Source of the DNA: an uncultured Phycisphaerales bacterium | GTDB taxonomy: Bacteria; Planctomycetota; Phycisphaerae; Sedimentisphaerales; Anaerobacaceae | Direction of reading: 5' to 3' | Length of the DNA: 64,000 bases | Assembly: GCA_963718665.1 (NCBI GenBank) | Contig: OY970359.1 | Location: forward strand, 960,001-1,024,000 | Shown here: positions 30,512 through 44,503 of the stretch, piece by piece | How the letters are laid out: each line of letters opens with the position of its first letter | Numbering within the stretch: position 1 is the stretch's first letter | Position numbers and translations under genes: made by a program | The notes under the pieces: model-generated | What the model saw: only the letters and a program-made list of their open reading frames with translations | Told to the model about the DNA's origin: nothing | Databases searched by the model: none

Positions 30512-31269
30512 AGAACCGCAGTCGGGGATCCACAAAAACTAAACACTAAAAACTGAAAACTCAAAACTATAGAGGAAGTCGAAGAATCGACTTCCTCTAT
30601 CCTATGGCGCAATCTTCGCGCTTTTGACGAAAACTAAGGGATTTCCTGATGGGGCCAAAAACGATAAGTCCTTATGAAATAAGGAGTAAAAAAATTTTAA
30701 GATTTTTGAATCTAAGGGTTTTCGACCTGCGCGAAAATGGATAACAGTTGTATCATACAACTGTTTGATACAAGTGTTTTATAGGACAGTTGGTATCCAG
30801 AATTTAAGCCGTTATAAGGAAAGATGTTATGGCAAAAATCGTGCCTGAAAAACACGTAAAAATTGGCCTAAAAAATGACCAAAAAACCACGCAAAAACAC
30901 AGAAGATTTTTGAGGTGCGAATCTGCAAGTATTGACAAAAACTGACTTTAACGCTGTTTTTAATGTACCCATATCGCCTGCTTTTCATGTCAAAAATTTG
31001 CGCCTTAGTTAACAAAAGTCGAACACGCCGAAGGCGGGCAATCCTCAACGAAGCATAACGAACAGAGTAAAATTACATTGAGGTATTGCGGCTTTACATC
31101 GTAGCATTGTTGGCTTACAATGAGGCATCGTAACCGGGCAAAAAATGATGATGTTGCCCGCAGTGGTGTCAAGAAGGATCGAGATATGGTCGGCTTCAAA
31201 AAAAGACGCAGTAAAAACAAACGCAAAATACGAGCAACAAAGCAATTACGAAAAAAGAAGAGGCAACAA

Positions 31270-32118
31270 ATGGAACAGCATGACCCGTACAAGGATTTCA
31301 CTAGTCGGCTGAAGTTGATGGCTAGTAAGTTTCCCGATCTCATCACGACCACACTGAGTAATATTTTTACCATGCGATTGATCGGAAATAAGACACACGG
31401 CGACCTCGCGGAAATCGCTATCGCTGAGTTTATTAATCAGTATATGTATGACTTTCGCTCAATCCATGTCGGCAAAGATCTTTACAGAGCTAAGTCCCGC
31501 GAGGAGGACATCACCATCATCAATGAGGTCACAAAAGATGAATTCCCCGTGAGTCTGAAAGCCTACGGAGATGGTCCACTGCAACTCTCAACAGACAAGC
31601 ATATGCGAATGTTTCCAAGACTCGAGAAAGAATCAGACAAAGTTACCGGGAAAGATAACATTGCGAAGATATTCAATGACCCCGCGTTTGAGGAATTCAG
31701 CCATATAAATGTTCTTCCGCTGATTTACAACGAAAAGAAACAGCGTTGCAATATTCTCGTCTTTGACTATGAGAGGGCAAAACAGCAAACAGCCCGCATC
31801 GTCAGAGAGAATGAAGGAAAGGGTAGAACGCACCCTGTATATAGATTCTACGATGGCGAAAACAAATATATATGCGAAGTGAGATACGGCGGTGCGTCGG
31901 CAAACGCGCTACAGCGCGGACTATGGACAAACACCAAGAACGGGCTGAATTATTTTGACAGCGTGACCAATGGATGGATTGATTACTCGCACAACAAAAT
32001 TCTTGTTCAATTGTTTTCTCACGCGCTTGTTTCGTCCAGTACTGGACATGAATCAGCTCTTGTGAAGATCAAAGAAGATATCGTACGACTTAAGCAGATT
32101 GCTGGAATCGAGAAATAA
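31270..32118 (+). CDS. Putative restriction endonuclease (unassigned family)
   Basis: HGDLAE...EEDI...VSLKAYG resembles a PD-(D/E)xK variant; TAATG stop/start coupling to the MTase. ATG at 31270 preferred. Confidence 0.6.
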   Translation: MEQHDPYKDFTSRLKLMASKFPDLITTTLSNIFTMRLIGNKTHGDLAEIAIAEFINQYMYDFRSIHVGKDLYRAKSREEDITIINEVTKDEFPVSLKAYGDGPLQLSTDKHMRMFPRLEKESDKVTGKDNIAKIFNDPAFEEFSHINVLPLIYNEKKQRCNILVFDYERAKQQTARIVRENEGKGRTHPVYRFYDGENKYICEVRYGGASANALQRGLWTNTKNGLNYFDSVTNGWIDYSHNKILVQLFSHALVSSSTGHESALVKIKEDIVRLKQIAGIEK

Positions 32119-33251
32119 TGGAAGAACTGGCACTAATTCCCGACATTGTTTTGGATGCTCCAGACACAGAGGGCATCAAGTATACTGGATCTAAGCTCAA
32201 ATTGTTGCCGTATATCTTGAATCTTGCCAAAAAGGTTCAAGCAAGAAGCGTGTTTGATGGATTCTCTGGAACAACCAGGGTTTCGCAGGCGTTTGCCAAA
32301 CGTGGATATCGGGTGATCGCTAATGATTGTTCTGTATGGTCGCAAGTGTTCGGTACCTGTTATTTACTGAATCACAAAAGTCCCTCGGAGTACCGAGATT
32401 TGATCAATCACCTGAACACTGTAACTCCTACGGATGGCTGGTTTACGCAGCATTACGGGGGCCTTCCAAATGGAGGATTATCCTCTCAAGTGGATGGGCT
32501 GAAAAAACCATGGCAAGTGAAGAATACAAGAAAACTTGATGCCATACGCGATGAGATAGATCGCCTTTCTCTGTCTCCCGTAGACAAAGCAGTGGCATTG
32601 ACAAGCCTTATTCTTGCGCTCGATAAAGTTGACAGCACGATGGGCCACTTCGTGTCATATCTTCGCGATTGGTCGCCACGCTCATATAACGACCTTATTT
32701 TGGATGTGCCGGCCGTTTTCACTACGACAGAGGAGAATCAGGTTTTGCAGGGTGACATCTTCAACATATTGCCCTCAGTTCAGGCAGACCTAGCGTATTT
32801 TGACCCTCCTTACGGATCGAGTAACGAGAAAATGCCGCCGTCCCGTGTTCGATATGCGTCCTATTACCATCCGTGGACTACGATATGCCTCAACGATAAG
32901 CCGCAACTCTTTGGCAAGGTTAATAGAAGAGTTGACACTTCAGACACGGTGGCCGGTTCGATCTTCGAGGAATTTCGGCGAAGCTCATCAGGCAGATTTA
33001 TTGTCGTCGAAGCCATTGAGCAGATGCTCAGAAGCGTGAATTCCCAGTGGATTATTCTTTCATACAGTTCCGGTGGCAGGGCAACTTCAGAAGAATTAAA
33101 TGATGCCATTGCTGCAAGCGGTAGAGTTCTTGTCGTTGAAGAAATTGACTACAAGAAAAATGTCATGGCGGGGATGAAATGGACAAATGATTGGATTCGT
33201 GACGCCGAAGAGCCACACCGTGAATTCCTCTTCTTGATTGAGAAGAAATAG
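32118..33251 (+). CDS. DNA adenine methyltransferase (D12/Dam-like alpha class)
   Basis: IKYTGSKLKL, FDGFSGT, AYFDPPY, ILSYS. Confidence 0.9.
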   Translation: MEELALIPDIVLDAPDTEGIKYTGSKLKLLPYILNLAKKVQARSVFDGFSGTTRVSQAFAKRGYRVIANDCSVWSQVFGTCYLLNHKSPSEYRDLINHLNTVTPTDGWFTQHYGGLPNGGLSSQVDGLKKPWQVKNTRKLDAIRDEIDRLSLSPVDKAVALTSLILALDKVDSTMGHFVSYLRDWSPRSYNDLILDVPAVFTTTEENQVLQGDIFNILPSVQADLAYFDPPYGSSNEKMPPSRVRYASYYHPWTTICLNDKPQLFGKVNRRVDTSDTVAGSIFEEFRRSSSGRFIVVEAIEQMLRSVNSQWIILSYSSGGRATSEELNDAIAASGRVLVVEEIDYKKNVMAGMKWTNDWIRDAEEPHREFLFLIEKK

Positions 33252-35553: not shown

Positions 35554-37395
35554 GTGGCGAAGAAAAAAGACACCCATAAGAGCAAAAATCAGGCCTCAGC
35601 CGATAAAATTCGAGCAGACGGGGCCTCACAGGCAAAACCGCAGACACCGGGCGATGCCGAAGCAAAAATCAAGGCGATGATTGAAAAGGGCAAAAAGAAG
35701 GGCTACCTCACTTATGAGGAAATGAACGCCGATTTGCCCGAAGACCTTGTAAGTCCCGCGCGATTAGATACGCTGCTGACTGCGCTGGATGAAATGGGCA
35801 TCAGTTTGATTGATGAAGCGGACGTCGATAAGCACGGCGCGCCCGCGGAAATCGCCGAGGAGGATTTCGAGCCGGTCGAAGCGGAATTGCCCATCGAGCC
35901 GGTCGCCGAAGAAGAGCCGGTCATCATCGAAGAAGATAAACTCATCGAAAAAGAGATTATCGAATCCGAGCCGAACCGAAGAATCGACGACCCCGTCAGG
36001 ACGTACCTCACGCAAATGGGCGAAATCCCCCTGCTCAACAGGGAAAATGAAATTTCGCTTGCCCGCAAAATCGAGGTTTCGCGAATGACCTTTAGGCGCA
36101 AAATGCTCGAAAACGATTATTGCGCCAAAAACTCCGTCGAAATCCTCCAGCAGGTTCAGCAGGGCGGCCTCTCCTTTGACCGGACAATGAAAATCAGCAC
36201 CGCCGAGAACCTCATCCGAAGCGTCATCAAAAAACGCCTGCCTCAGAATCTCAAGACCATCAACGCCCTGCTTGCGATGAACCAGGCCCTCTTCAAGGAA
36301 TTTCTCCATCTTGGCGATTCCCCCAAAGCCGTTCCCGTCCTGCGACGCCTTACGAGGAACCGCAGGCGTATCGCCACGCTCCTCGAAGAGCTTAGCTTGC
36401 GCACCAGCAGGATTGCGCCAGTCAAAGAAAAACTCCACGGAATGGCAGCAAAAATGCACCAGCTGCAGACCATCATCGCCATCGGCCCGACACAGGATTA
36501 CGTCAGAGAAGATATCGACGCGATGAAGCTGGAGCTTGCCGGCATTCAGGACCTCCTCTGCGAGACACCCGCCCAGCTTGACAAACGCCTCTACGTCATC
36601 GAACGCATCTTCGTCCAGTACGAAAAAACCAAGCGTATCCTCTCCAGCGCAAACCTGCACTTGGTCGTCTCCATCGCCAAAAAATACCGCAACCGCGGCC
36701 TCAGCTTTCTGGACTTGATCCAGGAGGGTAACACGGGCCTTATGCGGGCGGTGGATAAATACGAATACCGGCGGGGGTATAAATTCAGCACATACGCGAC
36801 GTGGTGGATAAGACAGGCGATTACCCGGGCGATAGCGGACCACGCGCGCACGATTCGAATACCTGTGCATATGATTGAAACGATGAGCCGGCTGAGGACC
36901 GCGGGCAAAGTGCTCACACAGCGACTCGGCAGAGAACCAACTATCGAGGAAATCGCCAAAGAAGCCGTGATGAGCATCGACGAGGCACGCAGGGTGCTGA
37001 AAATCTCCCGGCATCCTATCTCCTTAGACAGGCCCATCGGCGACAGCGAAGACAGCAACTTCGGCGACTTCATCGAGGACGACGCCGTCGATTCCCCTGT
37101 CTCAACCGCCACCCAGGCAATGCTAAAAGAAAGAATCGAGTCGGTACTCAAGACCCTGTCATACCGTGAACGGGAAATCATCAAACTCCGCTACGGTATC
37201 GGCGATGGCTATACCTATACCCTCGAAGAAGTGGGCAGAATCTTCAAAGTAACCCGCGAACGCGTCAGGCAGGTCGAGGCGAAGGCAATCAGGAAACTCC
37301 AGCACCCCGTCCGGGCACGTAAACTCGAGGGCTTCCTCGACCATAAAAATCAGGCGCCCATCCGGCCATTATCGAAAGATCTTGTTACGCAGTAA
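35554..37395 (+). CDS. rpoD: Primary RNA polymerase sigma factor
   Basis: [50 protein letters not shown]; follows dnaG. Confidence 0.96.
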
Positions 37396-37419: not shown

Positions 37420-37552
37420 TCGTGCGCGCGTAGTCCGCTATCGCGCGGGTAATCGCCTGGCGAATCCACCACGTGGCGTATGTGCTGAACTTATAACCCC
37501 GCCGGTATTCGTATTTATCCACCGCCCGCATAAGCCCTGTGTTGCCCTCCTG
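37420..37552 (-). repeat. Inverted 133-bp partial copy of rpoD region 2 (36721-36853)
   Basis: Manual alignment gives 122/133 identical; 10 of the 11 differences are synonymous. Confidence 0.92.
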
Positions 37553-38087: not shown

Positions 38088-38124
38088 AAAGGCCTCGTCC
38101 GAAAAGACGGGGCCTTTTTCTTTT
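38088..38124 (+). terminator. Intrinsic terminator after the cold-shock gene
   Basis: AAAGGCCTCGTC-cgaaaa-GACGGGGCCTTT followed by T-rich sequence. Confidence 0.8.
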
Positions 38125-38139
38125 AATTGGAAAGGCTGA

Positions 38140-39195
38140 TTATATCTTTTTGGGGAGATGAAAAGCTGCGATTATTCCAGCAGCTATTGATGCGAGGAGA
38201 GCAAATGTCGTAATTATAAATTTCGCCTTATCGGGTAATTGTGAATTTGATAGTGTCGTTATTGCCTGAGGAGCCGCCAATAATACTCCGATAAGGAGTC
38301 CAATAAATAAATTACGTACCCACATGCCAGATATTATTAATCGGACATCAAAGTCAAACTTTCCAATTTTATCACTGGATAGGTCGGAACCCCTAAAAAT
38401 GGATAACGCAGCATCCTCAGAAGTTGTCGTAGGAGCAGTCTGAATACGAACAAGTTTAACATCGTATCTTGAATTTACTTCCAATGTTGAATTGCTTGTT
38501 ATTGTAATTGAAGACGTTTCTGTCTGTAATCGAAAAAAAGCGTTACTTTTACCTTCAGAAGGGTGAAAATGATATAGTTCCATCTCATATGTCCTTGCTG
38601 GTTTTAATTTAAATGCTCCATATTCAAGCAAGACATTTTCCTCAGTGCATATGTCTCTAATTCCTTTAAAGATATAAAAGCATTTTTCGGCAACAAAGTC
38701 TGGCCTTTGGGCAACTTGCGTTACAATGCTCTCCCAAGTGGCAAGTTCCTTAGAAGATATAAGTGGAAATGGTTTATTTTCATCAATCTCAAAACAATAA
38801 CGACCGACAGGACGACCATCTTGTCCCCATGTTGGCACATCGTTGCTTGTGAACGTTCTTATTTCATTAGTAAAAGGTTCTAAATTTTCAGCATAAGCAA
38901 ATTCTTGTAGGCAAAGCCCCAATGTAACGGTGGTGCCGTGTATTTTTGCATCACTTATTAAAGCGAATCGACATGGTATGAGATCGGGCGTCTTACTCTT
39001 ATCATGCTGATCAATATAAGAAATCAATGTTCTACTGCCTTCACATGTCCCATTTCTGATTTTATCATGGACTTGGGGGGCAACCCATTTGAGATTATAT
39101 CGGAATTGGAGCCGCGATCCTTCTGGCATTGCCAAAGCAAGGATAATATCTTGTCTATATCTCTCTCTTGCACCTGACGAAAGACAAATGAACAT
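38140..39195 (-). CDS. Hypothetical protein with two C-terminal TM helices (putative effector)
   Basis: ATG at 39195 after AAAGGAG; N-terminal YRQDI..LA.P.G..LQFRY..KWV; C-terminal hydrophobic pair. Confidence 0.75.
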   Translation of the reverse strand: MFICLSSGARERYRQDIILALAMPEGSRLQFRYNLKWVAPQVHDKIRNGTCEGSRTLISYIDQHDKSKTPDLIPCRFALISDAKIHGTTVTLGLCLQEFAYAENLEPFTNEIRTFTSNDVPTWGQDGRPVGRYCFEIDENKPFPLISSKELATWESIVTQVAQRPDFVAEKCFYIFKGIRDICTEENVLLEYGAFKLKPARTYEMELYHFHPSEGKSNAFFRLQTETSSITITSNSTLEVNSRYDVKLVRIQTAPTTTSEDAALSIFRGSDLSSDKIGKFDFDVRLIISGMWVRNLFIGLLIGVLLAAPQAITTLSNSQLPDKAKFIITTFALLASIAAGIIAAFHLPKKI

Positions 39196-39244
39196 AAATA
39201 ACTCCTTTCTTTCGAGCCTTAACAATAAATAGCTGAATAATATT

Positions 39245-40351
39245 TTATAAAATGGAAAGTTGCCCAACCGAATCGAGAACCTCTCGGAATTTCTTAGTTG
39301 AGCCAAAGTCGATAGTCCATGTTGCCTTGCAACCTTCAGAATATTTCTCAGGATTATATTTTTTAGGTAATGCAAGGTAAGCTGTAACATCGGGCCTTAC
39401 ATAACAAAAAATGCATACACCCAATGATTGCATTTTAGAGCCCAAAGCAGAAATATATATTTGGAAATCAAGATTCCTATCTTTATATATTTGGTCTAAC
39501 ACTTTAATCGTTTCTTTATAATCGAAAGTACATACTTCCCTTGAAATGGTTCTTTCATCTATTTTATTAATTATGCGTAATATTGCCTTACGTTTTTCTT
39601 TATCTACTTTGTTCATATGCGGATCGCCAATTATCCAAATAATTTTCCCAGGTTTCCTTAAAATAGTTTCATCTATGTGTGTTATGATCGCTTTTGTTCT
39701 TTCCGGTTTGAAAGTAGTGAAGGCAATTACAAAAGGGGGATTTTCTCGAGTGCTACCGGGGTATTCAGGGCTTGGAATGACTTTGCCTACTCCTATAGAT
39801 ATTCCGAGTCCTTCTTCTGTTGTCCATTTTTCTGGTTCAGCATCGAATTCATCATTCGTGGGATGATAAATTGCTGCTTCCGAATATACAATCTTTAAAT
39901 CAATATCGTAATCAATTAAAGTTCGAATCACTGAAAGAATTAGCTTTGAAGAAAACACGCTAATGTCTAATAACACTTTAAATTCGCCATTGGACGGGCA
40001 AACAGTATTAAAAAATTCTCTAAACTGCCTTGTGAAGTCGTCGTCGTCGCAAGTAAAGGTTTTATATCTATCGGATTCTGTGAATTTCTTAATAGCACGT
40101 AATAGTCTTTGTTTGTTTGCTGCGTTATCTTCGGTGTTGGTTGAATATTCGAATACTACAGAATATTGACTATTGAACCCTTTTACTGTGGCAAGTTTTT
40201 CCGGTATGACAAGGCATCTTTCTTCAAATCCTAATGCAGAGATAAAAACATCAAATCTCTTTTCTAAAAACATCTTCTCACATTCTAAAGCTTCTATGTC
40301 TGGCAAACGGCTTAGAATATCGATAAATTCATTTTCTTTAATTCGTGCCAT
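39245..40351 (-). CDS. Hypothetical Rossmann-like (possibly CARF-related) protein
   Basis: ISALGFEERC, LDISVFS, YSEAAIYHP, ISALGSKMQSLG, YSEG. The fold assignment is inference. Confidence 0.6.
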   Translation of the reverse strand: MARIKENEFIDILSRLPDIEALECEKMFLEKRFDVFISALGFEERCLVIPEKLATVKGFNSQYSVVFEYSTNTEDNAANKQRLLRAIKKFTESDRYKTFTCDDDDFTRQFREFFNTVCPSNGEFKVLLDISVFSSKLILSVIRTLIDYDIDLKIVYSEAAIYHPTNDEFDAEPEKWTTEEGLGISIGVGKVIPSPEYPGSTRENPPFVIAFTTFKPERTKAIITHIDETILRKPGKIIWIIGDPHMNKVDKEKRKAILRIINKIDERTISREVCTFDYKETIKVLDQIYKDRNLDFQIYISALGSKMQSLGVCIFCYVRPDVTAYLALPKKYNPEKYSEGCKATWTIDFGSTKKFREVLDSVGQLSIL

Positions 40352-40362
40352 CGATTGTATCC

Positions 40363-42891
40363 TTATGTATCAAATAAAGATGATTGGTCTGGCTCTTTAT
40401 ACCTATCATATTCTTGCTGACATATTTCTTCTGGATTTGTTAAAAACTGCTTTAATTCACTCGTGTCCCACTTAAAGGCCCATGATTTTTTTAATCCGGC
40501 TCCAAATACTGGGCAATATATTCTTCTCAGTTGCCATCTCCAAGTTGGTCCAAAGGTCATGCGGCCCCTGCTTGGTTCCATCTCAATGAAAATTGACCGC
40601 CTTACAAGCTCCTTCATTAATTCTTGCTGTTCCTGGGCCCAATCTTCTCCGGATTGTCCTGGTATTTGATCGACTTCAATCCTTGTAGTTTCGAGCAAAC
40701 GACCATCATTCATTCTATTAGCTTCAACTAATAGTTTACGACATAAAGTGCCAAAATTAAGAATTATTTTATACATCTCGGTTCCACAGGGATGATAACT
40801 CTTAATTAGTTCAAAGAAACTTCTTGAGACGCTTTGTATTGAGCTATGTTGGGTATGTTTAAGTACACCATTCGTTGTTTCTTTTACAACGCCTCCCTCT
40901 TCAAATATACGGCGATATATTTCTAACAAAGCAGAGACATCTCCAGAGCAAATCTCGGCGATTGTCTCCAGTCCATGATATTGGTCTTTTCGTTTTTTAC
41001 CTTCTTTTAATGCTTCGCCAAGAGAGCTTTCTGAGTATTCGCTATGACCTATTATATCTTCAGCTTTTCCGGAATATAAAGCCAAATTCAGCCTATGATT
41101 TAACAAATCTGTGGCAAATTTTATGAGATCCTTCAAACGCCCTTTATCACTAAGATTTATGTAATATTGACCACAATCAACCTCTCTAAATTCCCTCGTA
41201 ACATCAGCAGTGGATAGTGTTTCGCCACTGAATTCCAGTACACGTTCCGCTCCATATTTCTCAGCGGATAATTTAAATACGTGATTGGCATTTCTAAACC
41301 AGATAATTGGATTTAATATTGTTTGTATGGGCAATGAAATCCGATGGATCGAAAAATCATCTAACAAGAAGACTATTTTTCTTTGTTTACAATAATCGAG
41401 ACTATTATTTAAAAGACCTGTCAAATCATTAAGAAAAGATTCTGGAAGAGTATAAGGAAGATTATATCCTCTCAAAAACTGATCATAGCAAGTATTCATT
41501 TCCATTTCAACAATTTCATGAAGATGTTCCAACGGCGTTACACCTTGCAATCGAAGCTTTTCCTCCGCTCTTAAATCCAATCTACTGGTTACGAAATCAA
41601 ATATCTCTTTTTCTTGAGTTTCCCCTAAACCGAACAATGTTTCTTTGTCTTTTCTTTGTGCAATAAGTAACAAAGAGTGAATTACTTCACGTGTAAGTAA
41701 TAGATTAAAATAGTGTATTATCTCTTTTTGAAACCTTTTGGCAATTACTTCTGATGTTAGGCAACCAAATCGATTGCTAAAATCCGCGCTACAGGAGATA
41801 TAAAAAGCAACGATGACGGAGTTTTTTATTTCTTCTTGGGATTTATATAGAATGGCCTTTAAGCTCATTCTTCTAAAAACCGTCGATTTACCGCATCCTC
41901 TTGGACCAGTTAATAAAACAGGATTAGGGCTTGTAACCTCTTTCACCCATGGACAGGAATCTGCGAAAAGCCTTACCAACAATTGATCACTTGCAATATG
42001 TTCAGCAGAAATATAATCGAAAGGATCATCAAGTTTTAATTCGATTTCTTTGTAAGGATGTAGCACTCTTGTATAAGCATTTTCAAACTGCCTTCGTACT
42101 TTAGAAGGTTCAAAAAGAGCCGCTTGTCTATCTTCATCTAACATCGAATTAATCAAAGGTTTAATTGTATCTCTAAACCTTCGCTCTTTAAATGATAACA
42201 TTTTTCTTTTTTTGTATGAATCAAAGAGCATTGCGTTATACAAGGCAATAAGATGATGACAAAACCATCCATGATCGTCTTTGTCTTTTGTTAGAGTGGC
42301 ATCATAAGATTTAACCGAACCAGTATCTATAATCTTTACTCCCAGTTCTTCGTGAAGCATAGGCGCAATCATTACATTGCCAAGGTGCAAATCGTCGTGA
42401 CGCAATTTCGCACGATCTCTTAAAATGGTGAGGGCGTCACACATCTGCTTGACATAATTACGTATGAAAGACGATGTAATTTCATTATTATGGATGTATG
42501 TCTTTAACGTTTGCCCCTCAACCCATTCTTCGATAAAGCATACGCATTTAATCTTTTTGGATTTCTTGCGCTTTCTGTGTAGTGGAAATTCAATAATATC
42601 TGCGTCATAGAAATGTGCAAAACATGAATATTTACTCAATGAGGCCGCCATTCTTGCCTCGTCAAGGTAAGACCGATGCAGGTAATCTTTATATGTGGCA
42701 AGTTTAATAGCTACATCTCTTCCATATTCATCTGTTCCTTTCCAAACAACAGATTTGACTCCATCCGTAGGTAAACATTCTTTTGGAAAATATTTTGATC
42801 CACGAACAGGTATCTCATCCCCAATAACTTCTCTTGAAGATAACAATTGTTTGTCCTTTTGGGACATTTCTATTTTAACTTTTTTGGCCAT
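40363..42891 (-). CDS. Ser/Thr protein kinase domain fused to ORC/CDC6-like (STAND-type) P-loop ATPase
   Basis: VAIK, EEWVEG, HDDLHLGNVM, IIDTG; Walker A GPRGCGKST, Walker B IVFLLDDFS. Confidence 0.85.
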   Translation of the reverse strand: MAKKVKIEMSQKDKQLLSSREVIGDEIPVRGSKYFPKECLPTDGVKSVVWKGTDEYGRDVAIKLATYKDYLHRSYLDEARMAASLSKYSCFAHFYDADIIEFPLHRKRKKSKKIKCVCFIEEWVEGQTLKTYIHNNEITSSFIRNYVKQMCDALTILRDRAKLRHDDLHLGNVMIAPMLHEELGVKIIDTGSVKSYDATLTKDKDDHGWFCHHLIALYNAMLFDSYKKRKMLSFKERRFRDTIKPLINSMLDEDRQAALFEPSKVRRQFENAYTRVLHPYKEIELKLDDPFDYISAEHIASDQLLVRLFADSCPWVKEVTSPNPVLLTGPRGCGKSTVFRRMSLKAILYKSQEEIKNSVIVAFYISCSADFSNRFGCLTSEVIAKRFQKEIIHYFNLLLTREVIHSLLLIAQRKDKETLFGLGETQEKEIFDFVTSRLDLRAEEKLRLQGVTPLEHLHEIVEMEMNTCYDQFLRGYNLPYTLPESFLNDLTGLLNNSLDYCKQRKIVFLLDDFSIHRISLPIQTILNPIIWFRNANHVFKLSAEKYGAERVLEFSGETLSTADVTREFREVDCGQYYINLSDKGRLKDLIKFATDLLNHRLNLALYSGKAEDIIGHSEYSESSLGEALKEGKKRKDQYHGLETIAEICSGDVSALLEIYRRIFEEGGVVKETTNGVLKHTQHSSIQSVSRSFFELIKSYHPCGTEMYKIILNFGTLCRKLLVEANRMNDGRLLETTRIEVDQIPGQSGEDWAQEQQELMKELVRRSIFIEMEPSRGRMTFGPTWRWQLRRIYCPVFGAGLKKSWAFKWDTSELKQFLTNPEEICQQEYDRYKEPDQSSLFDT

Positions 42892-44050
42892 GATATTTAG
42901 ATGCTTCGTTTATTGTTCTTTTCGCTTTTTTGAAAAATTTTGTCGATGAGAAATTATTCCAATCCGGCATTCTATCTGCTCTTGGTAAGGCCCATCTTTT
43001 TTTCCAATAGGTTAATAATGCTTCGAAAGGACGATTAAACGAGATGGCTCGTTTTCCATTATGAATAACATTTCTTAAATTTTTAGCCAGAGGAAACAAA
43101 TAAAATTCCCTTTTGATGCCATGGCACTCAAATGAGGGTAATCCTAATCGGCTGAGGCCAAGACTAAGAAGTCTGAGCTTTCTTGACGGGCCATTGCCAT
43201 AACCTCTGGCAATATCAATCCCTTCGCGTTCCAAAAAAATAAGAAGTTCTTCATATAATTTTTCGGGGATATGAAACGACCCCGTTCCCTGCGTATATCC
43301 CAGACAGTCAGCTACAATTTCGCCATTATACTTCAGGCGATTATAAAGGCTACTTTTCCCAAAAGCACTGGTTGTAGTGATAAATAAAAGTTCGGGTTTC
43401 AGCGTCTGTTTTTTAATAATTGATATATAATTGGCATATCTATTTTTGTATGCTTCTCTCACTTCATTGGCTGTTAAAGCAAGAGCGACCATTTTCCCAC
43501 CCAGAAGTTCGTTATAAGGCGGAAGCGCTCCTACTCGTTGAGCATGCATTGATTTGTTTACCCATAAATCTAATTCACTATTGGGAAGGTTAAGTGCCTT
43601 ATCCCGAACAGACATTTTTAGTATGGGACTCTGTAAAGAAATCAAACCAAATGGGCAATCGTGTTTTTTATCCCATAAGAGAAACCGCAGTTGACGTCCA
43701 TAAGGATGCTGGTATGGAATGCTCCACCAGACAAAATTCCACCAGCGAAATATAATCTCCTCAAAAGACTCTGGTTGCACTTCACGTAGTTCCAATTCAA
43801 TTTGTTCAGGGATTATATCTTTCCCATCTCTATTGTATGATCTGACCAAATTAAAGTGTTGCCGTAAGAAATTCGAGTGCAAAGCAATTTGTTCAATCTT
43901 CGCTTTCCTCTGCATCCTTCTGAGAGTGTTTTTGCTGTAACCGGCAGGTCTAAGATGTGGATTGATTTTAAAACCATAATTCTTTAACGCAGCAAGAATT
44001 TTGTTTCGTAGTTTCGCCTTACCAACAATTTTCTTTTTTAGTTCTGCCAC
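42875..44050 (-). CDS. DUF4338 / Druantia DruA-like protein
   Basis: GRQLRFLL, SVRDK, GALPPYNELLGGKMVAL, TTTSAFGKSSLYNRL, GYTQGTGSFH. Confidence 0.8.
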   Translation of the reverse strand: MAELKKKIVGKAKLRNKILAALKNYGFKINPHLRPAGYSKNTLRRMQRKAKIEQIALHSNFLRQHFNLVRSYNRDGKDIIPEQIELELREVQPESFEEIIFRWWNFVWWSIPYQHPYGRQLRFLLWDKKHDCPFGLISLQSPILKMSVRDKALNLPNSELDLWVNKSMHAQRVGALPPYNELLGGKMVALALTANEVREAYKNRYANYISIIKKQTLKPELLFITTTSAFGKSSLYNRLKYNGEIVADCLGYTQGTGSFHIPEKLYEELLIFLEREGIDIARGYGNGPSRKLRLLSLGLSRLGLPSFECHGIKREFYLFPLAKNLRNVIHNGKRAISFNRPFEALLTYWKKRWALPRADRMPDWNNFSSTKFFKKAKRTINEASKYHGQKS

Positions 44051-44165
44051 TGCCCCTTCCTTGCCATATTATCTTGAACTAACCTGCGGGTTCTGCGATG
44101 TTTATCCTTCCATTGTCCATCAAAGGTGGTAAGGAGTCAAGGGCGTGCTTCGCGAGAAAGTTGAA

Positions 44166-44405
44166 AGTCGATAGTGGTTAGTCGATAGTCGTTAGTGTTT
44201 AGAAAACTGGGCCCCAGATCGTAGTCTGGGGTCTTCGCCCGCCTTCGTTGACACTATGGCGGGTAAACTGCGCTACGAGGAGAACTTTGGGGGGCTGAGG
44301 GCAGTATAAAGAGCAATACCCCCGCAGTTTTGCTTCGCAAAACTAAGCGCAGGGGTCTTCCCCCTTCGCCAAGGGCTACGGCGGGACAGGTCGCTGCGAT
44401 ACGAG
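44166..44405. repeat. Heptamer repeat plus two REP-like elements carrying nested palindromic insertions
   Basis: AGTCGAT/AGTCGTT units, and the host element GGGGTCTTCGC..GCTACGAG interrupted at ~44239-68 and ~44361-92. Confidence 0.75.
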
Positions 44406-44503
44406 AAAACTACTTGTTGCGGGAGCGAATTTGTGGTATATTTTACTTTTCGAGTAACTTGTTAGTGGGGTTTCAACTCGCTTAATACGCTGTATCAGGA
44501 GAA

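Follow-up and report, generated by a model that had tools for sequence, protein, structure and literature searches.

A DruA-family gene with two separable modules, a kinase-ATPase/CARF pair and a putative PUA-like membrane protein, in a variable defence slot

Do four tightly packed genes in an uncultured Phycisphaerales bacterium form a single defence system, or are they joined more loosely? The genes lie at 38140..44050 of a 64,000-nucleotide stretch (the window; GenBank assembly GCA_963718665.1, contig OY970359.1, positions 960,001 to 1,024,000), and a preliminary description had presented them as a candidate undescribed four-gene system in which the DruA-like protein might be the effector downstream of a kinase. 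Its layout of four co-oriented minus-strand genes, with a 17-bp overlap between A and B followed by gaps of 11 bp and 49 bp, is exact, and its domain calls (DruA, kinase-ATPase, CARF-like, two transmembrane helices) agree with Pfam, with the CARF6 models of PADLOC and with two hydrophobic helices in the last protein. Comparison with related loci gives another answer as to how the genes are organised: the cassette is a predicted DNA-modifying writer with two separable modules (genes B and C; gene D), not one obligate four-gene system.

42875..44050, minus strand: gene A, a DruA/DUF4338 protein with a GNAT fold, predicted DNA-modifying 'writer' (391 amino acids (aa), GTG start)
40363..42891, minus strand: gene B, a fusion of a Ser/Thr kinase and an ORC/CDC6-like AAA+ ATPase whose P-loop contains an arginine (GPRGCGKS; 842 aa)
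39245..40351, minus strand: gene C, a CARF6 protein with CARF domains in tandem and no effector domain, predicted partner of the ATPase of B (368 aa)
38140..39195, minus strand: gene D, a putative PUA-like (YTH/EVE-type) domain, an immunoglobulin (Ig)-like domain and two transmembrane helices (2TM), candidate modified-nucleotide sensor and membrane effector (351 aa, ATG at 39195)

The start of gene D was placed at the ATG at 39195 because its best relatives align from that methionine; a 416-aa frame also considered for this gene is over-extended.

Predicted writers, kinase-ATPases and gene D across genomes

Relatives of gene B confirmed by genome scan number 130, of which the best 80 were kept; by record title these come from Bacteroidota, Planctomycetota, Chloroflexota, Actinomycetota, Proteobacteria and archaea, and 79 hold the B frame, one being cut at a contig end. 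Gene C lies directly 3' of gene B in 73/79 loci, and the other six stop no more than 266 bp from a contig end. A DruA like gene A is present in 46/79, where its strand varies and 13 layouts occur; 11/79 have a member of a second, shorter DUF4338 subfamily and 16/79 an N4/N6 DNA methyltransferase. One of these three predicted writers is found in 73/79. Among the six loci without them, two have another methyltransferase adjoining B, two are truncated, one has none, and in the last a member of the same methyltransferase cluster (assigned by cluster only) lies about 3 kb off. Methyltransferase loci form one clade in the tree of B and short-DUF4338 loci two groups, so the writer swaps are few events and not 79 independent ones. 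Identity between A and B tracks less closely than that between B and C (0.63 vs 0.83), and gene A is frequently on the opposite strand to B-C. Gene D is found in 16/79 B loci at several separate positions in the tree, always in loci of the DruA type (16/46, as against 0/33 of the others, which include the 16 of the methyltransferase type).

Loci holding gene D were collected independently of gene B by scanning metagenomes with a DNA motif for D only, which gave more than 119 matches; 80 were fetched and 58 carry D by hidden Markov model (HMM). Similar motifs catch about one third to three fifths of 150 known relatives, and this sample of D loci is therefore partial. A DruA/Mom-family gene is present in 35 of the 58, within 600 bp of D in 24. 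These writers comprise 20 DruA (short and long forms), five short DUF4338 proteins and ten members of a third family, encoded directly 5' of gene D and bearing a C-terminal YunG-like domain; of seven scanned, six pass the Pfam Mom cut-off and the seventh is truncated. Where D is flanked by at least 2 kb on both sides, a DruA/Mom-family gene is present in 19/21 loci (15/17 after clustering D at 80%), whereas gene B is present in 3/21, and in 7/58 overall. Two well-flanked loci show none: one is a type I Druantia, where druA might be situated outside the DNA retrieved, and the other carries YunG together with a McrC-like gene. By comparison, a single DruA occurs in the 22 control loci without a scored D, and a D gene begins 15 bp past it, where the contig ends. 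In 401 genomes of another order, an HMM search recovered four D genes, three of them in B-C-D-DruA loci (two already counted) and the fourth beside a YunG-like gene near a contig end.

Gene D thus goes with the writer, not with the kinase. The expectation that the four families would co-occur elsewhere holds across phyla and far beyond chance, as modules rather than as a fixed four-gene unit: gene D is in a minority of kinase-ATPase loci, and most D loci are without the kinase.

Both modules also occur beside other genes. Three loci have gene D next to true type I Druantia and one has B-C next to a complete one; DruE was found in 1/80 B-search loci. Nucleotide-cleaning enzymes neighbour gene D in the form of HD/YfbR deoxynucleotidases (six loci, four near-duplicates), a MazG-like protein (one locus) and a HAD protein (one locus, L159 in our numbering, 3' of D); stand-alone YunG occurs in eight D loci plus two B loci, and NurA-HerA and MORC-type ATPases recur too. 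Ten loci (L157, L164, L170, L174, L179, L187, L200, L204, L214, L219) combine a Mom-YunG fusion with D and an HD or MazG-like nucleotidase, without kinase or CARF, and this unit is the simplest candidate for a writer-reader-cleaner system. Stand-alone YunG, with conserved Cys, His and Asp, stands by D, often with a long DruA, in L155, L160, L167, L195, L201, L208, L210, L224, L016, L029 and L302; it is possibly an amidase removing an acyl mark. Pairs of NurA-HerA type lie beside DruA-family genes with B-C or D in L002, L010, L011, L030, L158, L180, L202, L226, L227, L150 and L162, and could be makers of a nucleotide signal or effectors.

Gene D was not found in 400 other genomes of its own phylum, its motif is absent in viral contigs, a contig scan with the single protein returned nothing, and 72,556 plasmids gave no match at E<=0.01. 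The same plasmids gave none for gene B at E<=1e-15, and neither did viral contigs scanned with the single protein.

A variable slot in close relatives

The same region was compared in ten genomes of the genus, that of the cassette itself being 2.61 Mb and 94.6% complete. In the three closest relatives (flanks 91-93% identical) both flanks are joined around 4-8 kb of different DNA. In two of them this DNA encodes type I restriction-modification (R-M) systems that differ from one another, and in the third an 835-aa GHKL/MORC-looking ATPase; in the remaining seven genomes only the left flank was matched. Homology with the relatives stops at about 38125 and restarts at 44364-44412. The cassette sits, as had been described, between a cold-shock gene terminator and a repeat cluster:

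38088..38117: terminator-like hairpin of 12 pairs where the cold-shock gene and gene D converge, marking the left end of the variable slot
44112..44140, minus strand: promoter-like site 5' of gene A (consensus match only; not significant alone)
about 44150..44410: cluster of REP-like interspersed repeats, for which BLAST gave 33 more hits elsewhere in the genome; it marks the right end of the variable slot

Promoter-like sites are not above chance in number (25 found vs 19.2 +/- 5.0 in shuffles), and neither terminal repeats nor an att-like duplication were found around the cassette. The AT-richness noted earlier is pronounced: the GC content is 36.8%, and none of 2605 sliding 5.9-kb windows across the genome has a lower value (mean 49.2, standard deviation 2.3). 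Gene B has a match in 1/23 other genomes of the genus, and that copy comes after a methyltransferase and before a CARF gene. Because the slot of relatives carries other DNA and gene B is rare in the genus, we conclude that the cassette is a recent fill of a defence slot; that this mobile cassette serves in defence is very probable.

One of the alternative slot contents deserves mention. The GHKL/MORC-looking ATPase (so judged by eye) and a 195-aa gene occupy L139:7894-10909; the former has no Pfam or PADLOC match and the latter no Pfam match in a Pfam-only scan, and the pair is a candidate unknown defence system.

The proteins and their known relatives

Gene A is a full-length homologue of the DruA of type I Druantia (Pfam DruA, E 9e-65; PADLOC DruA1, E 3.6e-83 over 10-381). 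Membership of Druantia is ruled out, as had been anticipated: two DruE1 proteins gave no tblastn hit at E 1e-4 in the 2.61-Mb genome, two DruD queries found none there, and the four genes have no PADLOC hit to DruB-D (DruB and DruC not having been searched genome-wide with known members). DruA serves other modules. The structural model of gene A shows a GNAT fold, and phage Mu Mom is one of its top structural matches; Mom-family proteins replace DruA next to D in ten loci. Gene A differs from Mom in being longer and cellular and in having no direct sequence match: BLAST and profile comparison with Mom gave none, nor did the profile of the Mom family (PF25680). The short DUF4338 subfamily aligns clearly with gene A (91%, E 1e-6) and weakly with Mom (E 0.019 over 154 columns; Pfam Mom E 1e-4 and 3e-5). 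Among viral structure models, gene A comes closest to giant-virus proteins that are uncharacterised (Faunusvirus, E 2e-16; Yasminevirus; Dasosvirus).

PacBio sequencing might call another N6 adduct of adenine N6-methyladenine (m6A). According to the accessible part of its description, type I Druantia leaves a mark on host DNA at CAGCTGNC that PacBio calls as m6A, without having a methylase domain (10.1101/2024.04.14.589459), and Mom is reported, in the accessible text, to move glycine from Gly-tRNA onto adenine in double-stranded DNA (PMC13219725). Since DruA swaps with methyltransferases and with Mom-family proteins, and the Druantia mark is made without a methylase domain, DruA is probably a DNA writer. 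The earlier casting of DruA as an effector downstream of the kinase finds no support in that form, given that DNA methyltransferases replace it and its Mom-like fold points to DNA marking.

Gene B matches Pfam PF24389 (ORC-CDC6-like, E 5.9e-44) plus a kinase family, and PADLOC CARF6--CARF_STK_AAA (E 5.6e-38); gene C, downstream of the ATPase, matches CARF6--CARF_CARF_CARF (E 3.1e-17) and a further CARF6 model (E 1e-14). A PADLOC run had been expected to return an orphan DruA only; the DruA hit is there, but B and C are recognised as well. The kinase-AAA+-CARF core is indeed a predicted family whose AAA+ domain has an arginine in the P-loop (Makarova 2014, PMC4012209), and the word 'undescribed' does not apply to it. 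The likeness extends to a Ser/Thr kinase, the P-loop arginine and CARF domains in the same order; the difference is that two genes 11 bp apart stand here for a single fusion with an N-terminal Zn ribbon and a C-terminal winged helix-turn-helix. The accessible part of that description makes no mention of a DNA-modifying partner or of gene D, and a literature search on CARF6 found no relevant paper.

The motifs of gene B are intact, in keeping with the defence-island cassette first proposed: the kinase residues K63/E78/H165/D167/N172/D189 are kept in 74-76/76 aligned sequences and Walker A/B, R331, R566 and R600 in 76/76, the figure for R331 being partly by construction (the motif seeded the scan), though R331 is also invariant in an independently found set. 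Gene C contains an internal duplication (E 5e-4), and no sequence relative of it was found in the PDB. The modelled B-C complex scores 0.61 against 0.00 for the best of three controls, where the score threshold is reached by 116/157 solved complexes and 2/215 mismatched pairs. At least 92% of contacts are common to the runs, the partner has a predicted local distance difference test (pLDDT) value of at least 83, and the interface contains the P-loop R331. This modelling supports binding of C to B, the tandem CARF lying across the ATPase site. No cyclase was found among the recurrent neighbour clusters of B loci (unclustered neighbours being scanned only in part), so a cyclic oligoadenylate made by the locus is unlikely as the CARF ligand. 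The N-terminus of gene B has no cysteine pairs, whereas variant B proteins in two relatives (L178:8186-12354, L189:2090-4717) have the cysteines of a Zn ribbon there; both loci also carry a small, membrane-like gene of 180-189 aa between DruA and the CARF or kinase gene, and a divergent gene D.

Gene D comprises the putative PUA-like domain (about 1-160), the Ig-like domain (170-291) and two predicted hydrophobic C-terminal membrane helices (292-344). The matches of its N-terminal domain are modified-base readers, among them THYN1, which has been solved bound to methylated DNA; the Metis sensor domain is likewise a modified-base reader. The protein has no profile match to EVE, no PDB sequence match, no Pfam family common to 120 aligned members and no useful Atlas match (0.79, unnamed), and Foldseek matched the Ig domain only. 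Neither this family and architecture nor its tie to DruA/Mom writers was found in the literature searched, where bioRxiv supplements might list D-like architectures, and we regard them as new on that footing.

In Metis, as far as the accessible text goes, a PUA-like domain senses the N6-methylated nucleotide m6dAMP, which is freed as phages cause the genome to be degraded, and background levels of this signal are removed by a HAD enzyme. Type II acts through a transmembrane effector, and the authors predict a type III that brings its own modifying enzyme (10.1101/2025.11.05.686725). A paper on PUA-Calcineurin-HAD systems lists hypermodified-adenine synthesis among PUA partners, the accessible main text containing no mention of GNAT, Mom, Druantia or a transmembrane protein (10.64898/2026.01.15.699771). 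Set beside MisA and MisC by their descriptions only, the cassette appears to parallel Metis in its working, a putative PUA-like domain being joined with two predicted helices as a candidate transmembrane effector. It differs in that MisC, in the accessible account, has three helices and no PUA domain, in that the writer is a Mom/DruA GNAT protein and not a methylase, and in lacking the MisB HAD phosphatase.

A proposed acyl-adenine tripwire and its alternatives

Gene D can be read as a tripwire for acylated adenine because a membrane PUA-like protein follows writers, sometimes with cleaning enzymes, in parallel with Metis. DruA, as a Mom-like GNAT enzyme, would acylate adenines of the host chromosome; marked nucleotides freed by phage attack would fit the PUA-like pocket of gene D, whose membrane helices would in turn bring about death or arrest of the cell, much as Metis responds to m6dAMP. 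B-C would be a separate complex, its tandem CARF across the ATPase site as the modelling in part indicates, which might sense the same mark, in freed fragments or through its lack on incoming DNA, and so turn on the kinase and halt the cell. With mark, ligand and defence all derived indirectly, we give this full model roughly even chances. Several points weigh against it. The Mom-like call for DruA and the PUA-like call for gene D are both moderate, and no cleaning enzyme was found in the window; moreover, linkage cannot separate a free nucleotide from a DNA-borne mark or from guarding of the enzyme.

In BREX type 2/Pgl and MADS, one locus combines an enzyme that modifies DNA with an ATPase and a Ser/Thr kinase; these systems are not known to have CARF or PUA-transmembrane parts. 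The cassette could work similarly by excluding non-self DNA: the writer would mark host DNA, the ORC/CDC6 ATPase and CARF would scan for and react to unmarked phage DNA, and gene D would either detect in polymeric DNA that the mark is present or has been lost, or guard the writer protein. That B-C accepts any writer, that ORC/CDC6 ATPases are used in modification-linked systems (PMC10853773), that DruA works alongside a DNA helicase in Druantia and that THYN1 binds methylated DNA all speak for such a scheme. We nevertheless consider it rather unlikely, in that neither a nuclease nor PglZ or a PglX-type methylase was found in the cassette, no Brx/Pgl model hits the four genes (MADS yielding only generic kinase-domain hits to MAD6), a membrane-anchored reader would be better suited to a diffusible ligand, and cleaning enzymes by gene D fit free nucleotides. 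A single cascade, in which sensing of a phage protein by the ATPase leads the kinase to phosphorylate a partner, with either D or DruA (as a toxic protein/tRNA acyltransferase) as the effector, would suit the tight operon, the intact motifs, the structure of gene A, which is as near protein/tRNA acetyltransferases as it is to Mom, and a 4TM effector-like gene 5' of B in an A-B-C locus (L044). It is improbable when B is absent in 51/58 D loci, methyltransferases fill the place of gene A, and A departs from B-C in strand and in identity tracking. Most improbable of all is that the genes are independent island passengers, or have a non-defence role (epigenetic or stress signalling), grouped by clustering at hotspots. 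The 13 layouts would fit this, as would partners that also adjoin NurA-HerA, MORC ATPases and Druantia, and the literature searched yielded no experimental defence data for CARF6 or gene D; against it stand the closeness of writer and D in 24/58 loci, the control loci, whose sole DruA has D beside it, and the exchange of the slot with R-M systems.

The tripwire model may be part of a broader, joint reading, which we hold as doubtful: DruA and cellular Mom-like enzymes would make a private acyl-adenine mark read by several unrelated modules (DruBCDE, kinase-ATPase/CARF6, PUA-Ig-2TM, NurA-HerA and MORC ATPases). Gene D would then be the membrane tripwire for the acylated nucleotide freed on chromosome degradation, YunG-like thiol hydrolases would erase the acyl-nucleotide signal, and CARF6, as a CARF that needs no cyclase, would bind modified products of DNA breakdown and turn on the kinase. 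Apart from this broader reading, the cassette and its relatives tie together the activity of DruA, the methylase-less mark of Druantia and the ligand of CARF6. If the tripwire model holds true, it would bring a new cellular DNA hypermodification and would widen modified-nucleotide sensing from methyl to acyl marks in the self-contained writer-reader form that the Metis authors predicted, and 591 unannotated representative proteins would gain a family name.

Some further observations concern these loci and the surroundings of the cassette. Four unrelated genomes carry a gene for ThyX thymidylate synthase within or immediately next to their B-C-DruA locus (L014:9150-9971, L018:15178-16200, L020:15128-16063, L050:13662-14597); in L014 it stands between DruA and B. 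B, C or D is fragmented by frameshifts in L003, L009, L012, L025, L053 and L059, through decay or assembly error. In the window, a type II R-M pair (31120-33251; PADLOC REase_II E 4.5e-138, MTase_II E 2e-165) lies about 5 kb from the cassette. Just past the stop codon of an upstream sigma-factor gene, a stretch of 133 bp (37420-37552) repeats part of that gene (36721-36853) in inverted orientation at 92% identity; this stretch could pair with the mRNA or be the scar of a rearrangement.
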